Origin: Candidatus Dojkabacteria bacterium
Lineage (GTDB): Bacteria; Patescibacteriota; Dojkabacteria; SC72; JAHDCA01
Assembly: GCA_030583845.1 (NCBI GenBank)
Contig: CP129478.1
Location: forward strand, 843,686 to 907,685
DNA: 64,000 nt
Direction: 5' to 3'
The notes below the pieces were generated by a model that made no database searches, was not told where the DNA came from, and saw only the letters and a program-made list of their open reading frames with translations. Position 1 is the first letter of the stretch; each line of letters opens with the position of its first letter. A program made the translations under genes and the position numbers. Below, in pieces: positions 6,163-6,719 of the stretch.

Positions 6163-6549
6163 TGGCTCTGCGGGAAGGATTCGAACCTTCAACCCACTGG
6201 TTACACGTACTCCTCATATTTCTATGAGGCGTGGACTATCTCATCGCCATTGCTATTAGCATTAGGCGCAAGGCACTTCCCACACGTAGTAAAACTACGA
6301 GCAGTACGAGCATCGCTCTAGTCTCTGAACCTTCCCTTTCAGTTGCCTGAAGTTGGGCTAGGCTGCGGATTTCCATTACCTCTTATCATGTCTACCGTCG
6401 AGTAGACGAGGGTTAGGGTTCCCGCAATTCACCTTGTTATACATCTAGCGCTTTCGCGCTAAAGCTGCCGTAAACCTGCGTGGATTTCTCTCAAAACCCA
6501 CACACGTGTTAATGAACAGCCAGTTGCTCTACCATTGAGCTACCGCAGA
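6163..6549 (-). tRNA. tRNA (most likely Asn-GUU; Thr-UGU alternative) interrupted by a group I intron in the anticodon loop
   Basis: 5' exon TCTGCGGTAGCTCAATGGTAGAGCAACTGGCTGTT and 3' exon AACCAGTGGGTTGAAGGTTCGAATCCTTCCCGCAGAGCCA fold into a full cloverleaf with a 7-bp acceptor, D-arm, anticodon stem ACTGG/CCAGT, T-arm GAAGG-TTCGAAT-CCTTC and encoded CCA. U1-A72 and discriminator G73 favour Asn. Confidence 0.7.
6203..6514 (-). ncRNA. group I self-splicing intron (IC3-like), ~312 nt, no ORF
   Basis: Group I core elements in RNA sense: P-like AAUUGCGGGAA, Q-like AAUCCGCAGCC, R/P7 GGUUCAGAGACUAGA and S/P7' GAGAUAGUCC. Exact splice junctions are ambiguous by a few nt (after U33 or after U35/U36). 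Confidence 0.65.
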
Positions 6550-6719
6550 ATAATGAACAGGACATTATACTTTCACAGGTTAAAATGTGCAACAAGCCCG
6601 CTAAAACAGCACTACCTTGGCACTCCATCTAAAATTTGGCGACCTTAATATGGGCTTTAAAGATCACCCTGTATAAAGTAAAATAGTTAAACCAATCTAA
6701 TATATTTCTTACATCAGTA

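Follow-up and report, generated by a model that had tools for sequence, protein, structure and literature searches.

The window, by which we mean the whole 64,000-nt stretch of the Candidatus Dojkabacteria bacterium assembly GCA_030583845.1 analyzed here, carries on its minus strand a 387-nt tRNA gene at 6549..6163. An earlier note on this DNA had described an intron-split tRNA at 6163–6549; its coordinates proved exact at both ends, as did its intron length of 312 nt. The gene is very probably tRNA-Asn(GUU), by a published three-tool survey the sole tRNA-Asn of the genome, split at U35/U36 by a presumably self-splicing group I intron. The exons, the intron, and a putative promoter are laid out as follows:

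6564..6591, minus strand: putative sigma-70-like promoter, TGCACA-16 nt-TATAAT, 10/12 consensus matches (pattern match only)
6516..6549, minus strand: 5′ exon, 34 nt, tRNA positions 1–35 (sequence, in silico splicing, ARAGORN, Table S3 of the paper cited below)
6204..6515, minus strand: group I intron, 312 nt, at anticodon positions 35/36 (RF00028, published boundaries)
6163..6203, minus strand: 3′ exon, 41 nt, tRNA positions 36–76, with U36, discriminator G73, and encoded CCA

The 5′ exon reads UCUGCGG UA GCUC AAUGGUA GAGC A ACUGG CUGU, its last base being U35, followed by the 5′ splice site; the 3′ exon reads UAA CCAGU GGGUU GAAGG UUCGAAU CCUUC CCGCAGA G CCA. The claim that the exon halves fold into a canonical tRNA with an encoded CCA was borne out by in silico splicing, which gave a canonical 75-nt tRNA fold for either splice product (junction at 35/36 or at 33/34). 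The putative promoter, from a consensus scan, stops 14 nt short of the tRNA 5′ end.

Logan contig L001, assembled independently (run DRR779145; 99.62% identity over 8751 nt), has the identical 387-nt gene, so the locus is not an assembly artefact. In this second strain the flanks of the gene differ at 33 positions. The gene is also identical (387/387 nt) to the GCA_030583845.1 entry in Table S3 of Nakagawa et al. (2026, mSystems, PMC13011429), where it is listed as a Dojkabacteria tRNA-Asn(GUU) with an intron at 35/36, on the minus strand (tRNA 849848–850234, intron 849889–850200). The locus, the intron class, the insertion site, and the annotation pitfall described below are all already published in that paper, and the sole new detail here is an endonuclease-gene stump within the intron. 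The same paper reports 333 tRNA genes with introns across 18 phyla and group I introns in ∼40% of Patescibacteria genomes, which renders outdated the view of the earlier note that group I introns seldom occur in bacterial tRNA genes and are known mainly from cyanobacteria and a few proteobacteria. The class appears as "Asn.4Ug" in the tFind work (Williams 2020, bioRxiv 10.1101/2020.01.27.920355, as cited in PMC13011429). Two introns were tested in vitro, from GCA_016700035.1 (Asn) and GCA_001029755.1 (Asp), the window intron not being one of them; for the homologous Asn intron the sequenced junction was 35/36, and an ωG-to-C mutant was blocked in exon ligation (PMC13011429).

The group I assignment agreed with a covariance-model search: Rfam RF00028 (Intron_gpI) aligned over the full model (1–253) to 6503..6212 on the minus strand with 70.8 bits, above the gathering score of 50 (E 5.8e-16). 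An insertion in L1 keeps this alignment from reaching the actual 5′ splice site. Over 43 pairs in an alignment of 15 homologs (A1), 91.8% of cells were paired and 30 of the 43 pairs were compensatory. Controls with slid partners gave 31%–41% of cells paired, and none of 500 shuffles was as good as the real structure. The core of the window intron, P2 to P9, is supported by this covariation and comprises the following elements:

6443..6463, minus strand: P2 hairpin, UAGCGC-GAAA-GCGCUA; segment fold −11.3 kcal/mol; 5/5 pairs compensatory in A1
6430..6436, minus strand: P3 5′ strand, CAAGGUG, with partner 6275..6269; 90% of cells paired, three compensatory pairs
6364..6426, minus strand: P4, P5, and an extended P5 hairpin; segment fold −22.3 kcal/mol
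6329..6363, minus strand: P6 with a GCAA (GNRA) tetraloop (A1 covariation, segment fold)
6319..6323, minus strand: P7 5′ strand, GACUA, within the R element GGUUCAGAGACUA; invariant in 15/15
6276..6318, minus strand: two hairpins predicted in the stretch from the P7 5′ strand to the P3 3′ strand; segment fold −14.5 kcal/mol
6269..6275, minus strand: P3 3′ strand, UGCCUUG (covariation in A1)
6245..6268, minus strand: P8 hairpin (A1 covariation, segment fold)
6234..6238, minus strand: P7 3′ strand, UAGUC, within the S element GAGAUAGUCC; pairs 100% with 6319..6323
6212..6229, minus strand: P9 hairpin, CCUCAUA-GAAA-UAUGAGG; 7/7 pairs compensatory in A1 (also segment fold)
6204..6204, minus strand: ωG, the intron-terminal G (sequence); G in 10/11 Table S3 Asn introns and in 9/9 newly found ones

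The P/Q-like and R/S-like elements named in the earlier note are real: P/Q corresponds to P4 (UGCGGG/UCCGCA), which is 100% paired with five of six pairs compensatory in A1, and R/S to P7 (GACUA/UAGUC), the helix in which group I introns bind guanosine. Every core helix, including those of the P3/P7 pseudoknot, forms in the window intron itself. Five apparent mismatches in the window's P2 and distal P6 reflected a one-column MAFFT shift, and direct folding shows these helices intact. The extended P5 hairpin enclosed by P4 is peculiar to the window intron, and in the predicted fold the hairpins at 6276..6318 occupy the place of P7.1/P7.2 in subgroup IA introns.

We compared the intron with known systems. 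Patescibacteria tRNA introns have been assigned to subgroup IA and none to IC (PMC13011429), and the window intron is a listed member of the Patescibacteria tRNA-Asn(GUU) 35/36 introns, with which it shares site, core, GCAGC guide sequence, and Asn/Thr ambiguity. Its 312 nt make it longer than any other of the 11 compared introns that have no endonuclease gene, owing to its extensions in L1, P5, and the P7.1/P7.2 region. BLASTN against the retrieved loci returned no close relative, giving core-length matches only (25–68 nt), and the P4-P6-P7 core pattern behaved as a generic motif in viral sequences, with many matches among those listed. The classical IC3 introns (cyanobacterial tRNA-Leu(UAA) at 34/35 and tRNA-fMet at 33/34, Azoarcus tRNA-Ile, and Agrobacterium tRNA-Arg(CCU) at 36/37) are self-splicing, lie in the anticodon loop, and, like the window intron, have U at −1 and a terminal intron G; the window intron differs from them in host tRNA, in insertion position, and in the extra hairpins at the P7.1/P7.2 place. 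We infer self-splicing of the window intron by analogy, because a homolog from another class, validated in vitro, splices; the two are only ∼55% identical over aligned positions.

Where the intron is cut out decides which amino acid the tRNA serves. Excision of the same 312-nt intron two bases upstream, at 33/34, would yield a tRNA-Thr(UGU), a reading that we consider highly improbable. Annotation tools nevertheless favor it: ARAGORN misses the gene by default and, with introns allowed, reports Thr(tgt), i(33,312), placing the 312-nt intron at 33/34, and both tFind and ARAGORN call it Thr(UGU) in Table 1 of PMC13011429, which had already described the two-base Asn/Thr ambiguity of such introns. 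The choice of register turns on two further elements:

6463..6469, minus strand: internal guide sequence, P1 3′ strand, GGCAGCU; duplex −7.6 kcal/mol
6471..6473, minus strand: UUA, candidate P10 partner of the 3′-exon UAA (positions 36–38), from sequence comparison

The guide sequence pairs with the exon GGCUGU plus intron U+1, so that U35 (6516) and the G at 6468 form the G·U wobble, and its GCAGC is invariant in 15/15 homologs (A1). Folding P1, suggested earlier as a way to fix the junction, favored 35/36, with 7 bp (−7.6 kcal/mol) versus 5 bp at 33/34 (GCU-GU with ACGGC, −4.5 kcal/mol); when exon pairs alone were counted, P1 had 6 bp (−7.1 kcal/mol) versus 3 bp (−0.9 kcal/mol). Across 11 Asn homologs, P1 spans 5–8 bp in the 35/36 register and 2–5 bp in the 33/34 register. 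To the credit of the Thr reading, the window intron has the strongest 33/34-register P1 among these 11 and also a G usable as ωG there; but an ωG is present in 19/20 homologs in the 35/36 register and in 14/20 in the 33/34 register, the remaining six of 20 having no G for the latter, and sequencing showed that a homolog sharing this ambiguity splices at 35/36 (PMC13011429). The candidate P10 does not discriminate, since it fits both registers (UAA/UUA, 3 bp, for 35/36 and GUAA/UUAC for 33/34). Of the Asn-yielding junctions offered in the earlier note, the one after U35 stands and the one after U36 falls, because the intron would then end in U and not in the required ωG. Sequence comparison and predicted pairing support insertion between anticodon positions 35 and 36.

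The exon body also bears on identity. The window exons carry U1-A72 and G73, described earlier as Asn-like, and each of these indeed occurs in 101/109 tRNA-Asn genes sampled from the listed matches. As had been claimed, the tRNA-Thr(CGU) in the window has G1-C72 and U73; sampled Thr genes (n = 3) have G1-C72 with U or A at position 73, and the window exons lack this Thr-type body. Uninterrupted genes matching a 5′-half pattern were Asn(GTT) in 112/112 cases among the matches listed, although the pattern fixed CTGT and could not retrieve Thr(UGU), so that this count is not a direct Asn-versus-Thr contest. Two further matches to it (L100 and L102) are interrupted tRNA genes. The 5′-exon pattern is semi-degenerate and broad, with at least 120 matches, most of those listed being from Alphaproteobacteria and various Patescibacteria, and among the matches listed there was no Dojkabacteria locus or syntenic empty-site allele. 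A whole-body comparison with the loop masked is partly circular, since CTGT was fixed in the pattern, and a T-arm-only comparison fails to separate isotypes, a Lys gene equaling the best Asn score.

The tRNA inventory points the same way. The complete GCA_030583845.1 genome has zero tRNA-Asn by tRNAscan-SE, ARAGORN, and tFind, and its Thr count is three by tRNAscan-SE and four by ARAGORN (Table S2, PMC13011429); the fourth ARAGORN Thr matches the Table 1 ARAGORN mis-call of the window gene as Thr(UGU). Reading the gene as Thr would leave the genome with no tRNA-Asn and four tRNA-Thr. Together, P1 register, ωG, exon identity, and tRNA inventory uphold the preference for Asn(GUU) over Thr(UGU) expressed in the earlier note. 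At default settings, tRNA finders either overlook the gene or give tRNA-Thr, and the genome consequently seems to be without tRNA-Asn, an apparent absence that skews completeness estimates for small CPR genomes. As a side observation, the CGU gene within the window is the only one of the genome's Thr tRNAs whose anticodon was read directly.

In the mechanism that we propose for the tRNA-Asn gene, transcription would probably start from its own sigma-70-like promoter, and the G·U wobble at U35 would mark the 5′ splice site. A free guanosine held at P7 would attack after U35, and the terminal G (6204) would next occupy the guanosine site, leading to exon ligation and a product with the anticodon loop CU-GUU-AA and the encoded CCA end. 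The predicted sequence across the ligated junction is CUGUUAACC for 35/36 (Asn) and CUUGUAACC for 33/34 (Thr).

The statement that the intron has no ORF held up, its longest frame being 46 aa and none encoding a homing endonuclease. The loop of P1 contains what appears to be the remnant of one:

6469..6515, minus strand: 47-nt L1 insertion, from the 5′ splice site to the guide sequence (A1, segment fold)
6459..6491, minus strand: vestige of an HNH homing-endonuclease ORF, with R-E-I-H-A-G-L-R-Q-L encoded ahead of TAG

The vestige overlaps parts of the ribozyme, with the Q-L codons forming the guide sequence and the TAG opening P2. Against the C terminus of the HNH ORF in the tRNA-Asn intron of GCA_001029735.1, 7/8 aa and 19/24 nt are identical. 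Patescibacteria tRNA-Asn introns at 35/36 that bear an HNH gene (four listed in Table S3 of PMC13011429, together with L040, L091, and 11 metagenome contigs) share the same gene, site, and core; their ORF occupies the P1 loop, with its final codons running over the guide sequence and into P2. Of this ORF the window intron retains the last ten codons and, unlike the HNH-bearing introns, lacks ∼300 nt, the CxxC...CANCH zinc-finger/HNH motif among them.

We think it unlikely that the 47-nt insertion is an independently acquired peripheral RNA element (e.g., a stabilizing P1 extension) and not a gene remnant. Such an element would resemble the endonuclease because both overlap the constrained guide sequence, and indeed the UUACG-GCAGC stretch is common to relatives with and without the endonuclease gene, the last 12 nt of the insertion (UUACG-GCAGCUU) being probably ribozyme-constrained. 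The insertion, absent from most homologs, is also predicted to fold as a stable hairpin (14 predicted pairs in all, −18.6 kcal/mol). The match, however, runs six codons past the constrained part, where REIHAG is identical at 6/6 residues and its three nucleotide differences are all at synonymous third positions; 0/200,000 shuffles reached the observed identity. Moreover, every genuine metagenome match to the motif (11/11) is a full HNH ORF that ends CANCH-REIHAGLxQL and has the same position within a tRNA-Asn intron, and the remainder of the window intron is collinear in the alignment with the HNH-bearing introns.

The intron is very probably the non-mobile descendant of a mobile one of ∼550 nt whose P1 loop carried an HNH homing-endonuclease gene; deletion of ∼300 nt of the ORF would have left its last ten codons. 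The window intron is presumably immobile, because it cannot encode an endonuclease. The motif ACGTGT in the L1 insertion is common to L040 and L247 at differing offsets, so homology at the 5′ end of L1 is ambiguous, and with it the upstream endpoint of the deletion.

A decayed endonuclease ORF shows an element in degeneration, and the gene might accordingly be a disrupted pseudo-tRNA whose intron no longer splices, Asn decoding coming from another source; the consensus scan likewise found no terminator-like site 3′ of the gene. We regard this as very unlikely. Three tools found no other tRNA-Asn in the complete genome (PMC13011429), all core helices are intact when P2 and P6 are corrected for their one-column alignment shifts, and the intron keeps the invariant guide sequence as well as P7 and ωG. 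The promoter-like site lies immediately upstream, and the second strain has the gene unchanged despite the 33 differences in its flanks.

Homing introns pass through a classic cycle of gain, decay, and loss, with which the vestige in this tRNA-Asn intron agrees, being that of a presumably immobile intron derived from a mobile one. As a discovery the locus carries limited weight, the class, insertion site, annotation pitfall, and locus all being published, and the main text of PMC13011429 does not mention the vestige. The vestige is a modest addition, namely direct evidence, at sequence level, of a mobile, endonuclease-bearing ancestor for at least one "immobile" tRNA intron in Patescibacteria, and it bears on the question left open in PMC13011429 of how these introns spread and persist.

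Finally, we noted that the two-base repeat at both junctions (CU-GU-U ... G-UG-U-AA) could in principle let a minority of transcripts splice at 33/34, giving two anticodons from one gene. We hold this to be most improbable, and the GCA_016700035.1 homolog gave the 35/36 product only (PMC13011429). If it did occur, such dual-register splicing would let the same gene also supply a tRNA whose body is that of Asn but whose anticodon, UGU, reads Thr codons.

The gene occupies window 6549..6163 on the minus strand, and the features that we refer to are as follows.

Features of the split tRNA locus (window coordinates; slashes in sequences throughout mark splice junctions)
start of 6549..6163, minus strand: tRNA 5' half, 34 nt, UCUGCGG UA GCUC AAUGGUA GAGC A ACUGG CUGU
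between the tRNA halves in 6549..6163, minus strand: intervening sequence, 312 nt
end of 6549..6163, minus strand: tRNA 3' half, 41 nt, UAA CCAGU GGGUU GAAGG UUCGAAU CCUUC CCGCAGA G CCA
ending 14 nt upstream of the tRNA 5' end, minus strand: sigma-70-like site TGCACA-16-TATAAT, 10/12 pattern matches
6459-6491, minus strand: ten in-frame codons in the intron P1 loop, R-E-I-H-A-G-L-R-Q-L-stop, HNH frame
6318..6276, minus strand: two predicted hairpins between the P7 5' strand and the P3 3' strand

Reading the minus strand bore out the split tRNA at 6163-6549 that an earlier note had described, coordinates included, together with its claim that the intron lacks an ORF (none exceeds 46 aa). Its assignment to group I also held: the Rfam group I intron model matched window 6503..6212 (−) over its whole length at 70.8 bits (gathering score 50; E-value 5.8e-16), the sole non-tRNA Rfam match within the 64-kb window. 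ARAGORN in default mode did not detect the split gene at 6549..6163; when permitted to place introns, it named the gene tRNA-Thr(tgt) and put a 312-nt intron after position 33. No terminator-like site was found 3' of the tRNA gene.

The locus is already known, its class since 2020 and the locus itself, with its annotation pitfall, since 2026. A survey of Patescibacteria tRNA introns (Nakagawa et al. 2026, mSystems, PMC13011429) lists GCA_030583845.1 in its Table S3 under class Dojkabacteria, minus strand, as Asn(GTT) with the intron between tRNA positions 35 and 36 (35/36; tRNA 849848-850234, intron 849889-850200), and window 6549..6163 is identical to the tabulated sequence at 387/387 positions. 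The same row records Thr(TGT) 33/34 from both ARAGORN and tFind, a call that we reproduced with ARAGORN on the window sequence, and the survey explains the discrepancy by a splice boundary displaced by two bases. There the 35/36 Asn class goes by the name 'Asn.4Ug', taken from earlier tFind work (Williams 2020, bioRxiv 10.1101/2020.01.27.920355). In the same study, the tRNA-Asn intron of GCA_016700035.1 (Saccharimonadia) self-spliced in vitro with a sequenced product showing excision at 35/36, and a G-to-C change of its terminal guanosine blocked exon ligation (PMC13011429). We also recovered the gene from an independent Logan assembly (L001, run DRR779145) that matches the window at 99.62% identity over 8751 nt; the 387-nt gene (L001 2203-2589, window 6163-6549) shows no difference, and the surrounding 8.7 kb carries 33 mismatches (0.38%, or ∼1.5 expected per 387 nt), which is consistent with constraint on the gene although not significant alone.

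The requirement for a G at the intron 3' end leaves just two registers: 33/34 (CU/...ACG/UGUAA), yielding Thr(UGU), and 35/36 (CUGU/...GUG/UAA), yielding Asn(GUU). The earlier note had allowed junctions after U33 or after U35/U36; the U33 and U35 options stand, and a junction after U36 is ruled out since the intron would end in U. Five lines of evidence support a tRNA-Asn(GUU) interrupted at 35/36 over a tRNA-Thr(UGU) interrupted at 33/34. When P1 was folded, exon GGCUGU plus intron U paired with GGCAGCU at 35/36 (7 bp, −7.6 kcal/mol), versus GCU/GU with ACGGC at 33/34 (5 bp, −4.5 kcal/mol); the exon part alone gave 6 bp and −7.1 kcal/mol versus 3 bp and −0.9 kcal/mol. Across 11 Asn introns, P1 spans 5-8 bp at 35/36 and 2-5 bp at 33/34, and the 33/34 P1 of the window intron is the strongest of the 11, the sole point in favor of Thr. 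The intron-terminal G (ωG) is less conserved in the Thr register, being present in 9/11 Table S3 introns and 5/9 interrupted draft-genome genes, versus 10/11 and 9/9 at 35/36. The exon body has the Asn-type U1-A72 and G73, each found in 101/109 tRNA-Asn among the genome-scan matches listed; the three Thr genes among those matches have G1-C72 with U or A at 73, and the tRNA-Thr(CGU) of the window has G1-C72 and U73, supporting the contrast from which the earlier note had favored Asn. Among the matches listed, all 112 uninterrupted genes fitting the window 5'-half pattern carry GTT, a pattern that forced CTGT and was blind to Thr(UGU), and the other 13 are interrupted directly after CTGT, as in the window. 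Finally, Table S2 of the survey reports for this complete genome no tRNA-Asn by any of three tools and three (tRNAscan-SE) or four (ARAGORN) tRNA-Thr (PMC13011429); reading the gene as Thr would leave the organism without tRNA-Asn and give it four tRNA-Thr.

We aligned the window intron with 14 Patescibacteria 35/36 introns of Table S3 (10 Asn, three Asp, one Tyr). GCAGC of the internal guide sequence (the 3' strand of P1) is invariant, as are both strands of P7 (AGAGACUA and AUAGUCC) and a number of purines at junctions. RNAalifold recovered P2, P4, P5, P6, P7 and P9, and addition by hand of P8 and of P3, which is pseudoknotted with P7, gave a 43-pair model. The model was 91.8% paired versus 31%–41% with 3' partners slid by 1–3 columns, both sides changed in 30/43 pairs, and 0/500 shuffles equaled it on any measure. 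Direct folding of the window intron resolved its five non-standard pairs as one-column alignment shifts, with a perfect P2 hairpin (UAGCGC-GAAA-GCGCUA) and a distal P6 of UUCAG-GCAA-CUGAA. The core elements previously read as P/Q and R/S were confirmed, P/Q being P4 and R/S containing P7. The predicted hairpins at 6318..6276 lie where P7.1 and P7.2 of subgroup IA introns sit. Patescibacteria tRNA introns have been placed in subgroup IA, with none assigned to IC (PMC13011429).

From this anatomy and the validated homolog, we infer that the window intron self-splices. The tRNA-Asn gene would be transcribed from its own sigma-70-like promoter; the guide sequence (6469..6463) would open part of the anticodon stem and form P1; exogenous guanosine held at P7 would cut after U35 (6516); and ωG (6204) would then take its place, joining the exons as C32-U33-G34-U35-U36-A37-A38. 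UUA at 6473..6471 could be the P10 partner of the 3'-exon UAA. The stretch UUACG that precedes GCAGC is conserved among relatives whether or not they carry an endonuclease gene, and the candidate pairing does not discriminate between the two registers.

The P1 loop very probably holds the vestige of an HNH homing-endonuclease gene, a small addition to the published locus; the main text of the survey makes no mention of endonuclease remnants (PMC13011429). The distance from 5' splice site to guide sequence is 47 nt in the window versus 5-10 nt in most aligned homologs, and the insertion is predicted to form a stable hairpin (−18.6 kcal/mol). In endonuclease-bearing relatives (four Table S3 introns, L040 of 723 nt and L091 of 564 nt), an HNH ORF fills this loop, and its final codons extend across the guide sequence, where CAG CUU encodes Gln-Leu, and on into P2. 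The HNH ORF of GCA_001029735.1 ends C-A-N-C-H-R-E-I-H-A-G-L-V-Q-L, and over the eight codons before Q-L the window matches it at 7/8 residues and 19/24 nucleotides, a level reached by 0/200,000 shuffles. The last 12 nt may be under ribozyme constraint. In the six codons that precede them (REIHAG), every residue is identical and the nucleotides differ at just three sites, each a synonymous third position, a pattern that points to coding ancestry. A back-translated motif scan of metagenome contigs gave 13 matches, 11 of them full HNH ORFs ending CANCH-REIHAGL(V/L/T)-QL; in 10 of these, a tRNA-Asn 5' exon with CTGT at its end lies 299-322 nt upstream, and the contig of the eleventh (L246) stops short of the exon. 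The other two matches, in high-GC sequence, are unrelated, and chance would give about that many; the same scan of viral contigs gave no match. The window intron is collinear with two ∼550-nt HNH-bearing introns over the whole stretch between the REIHAG codons and ωG, and the ∼300-nt ORF body is absent. The match and this collinearity without the ORF body make descent by deletion from a mobile, HNH-bearing ancestor a well-supported reading of the sequences. Several endonuclease-bearing introns share a GGTATAC motif in their first ∼40 nt (L040, L097, L247/L252 and GCA_016699425.1), a short way before the start codon of the endonuclease (TGGTATACT in L040 and L247/L252); this motif, which may be a −10-like promoter element or else an RNA element that serves endonuclease expression, is absent from the window intron.

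The 13 interrupted tRNA-Asn genes come from draft genomes (L019, L022, L024, L031, L040, L062, L071, L089, L091, L097, L100, L102 and L121). Twelve have Patescibacteria-lineage titles (Saccharibacteria, Paceibacterota, Portnoybacteria, Nealsonbacteria or 'Patescibacteria group') and one is titled 'uncultured bacterium' (L097). Nine were recovered whole; their introns are 194-273 nt long where no ORF is present, and the two that carry an HNH ORF measure 564 and 723 nt. The exons of L024 (Portnoybacteria) are nearly identical to those of the window. The survey states that introns end in G (PMC13011429); the tRNA-Asn intron of GCA_016700375.1 (Saccharimonadia), listed at 35/36 in Table S3, ends ...gataagcA/TAAC without a terminal G, and the 33/34 register called by tFind would supply one and give the anticodon CAU. 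The intron may have decayed, or its 3' splice site may be unusual.

Table S2 lists four other complete Dojkabacteria genomes, each with one or two tRNA-Asn by tRNAscan-SE, a tool that the survey describes as optimised for genes lacking introns (PMC13011429). The intron is therefore sporadic within Dojkabacteria, reflecting either a recent gain in the GCA_030583845.1 lineage or repeated loss. None of the viral contigs listed holds a close relative of the window intron beyond its core. The core motif AATC[A/C]GCAGCC-N20-50-GGTTCAGAGACTA is present in at least 120 IMG/VR viral contigs (L122-L241), including several giant-virus MAGs, and introns with this core look common in viruses.
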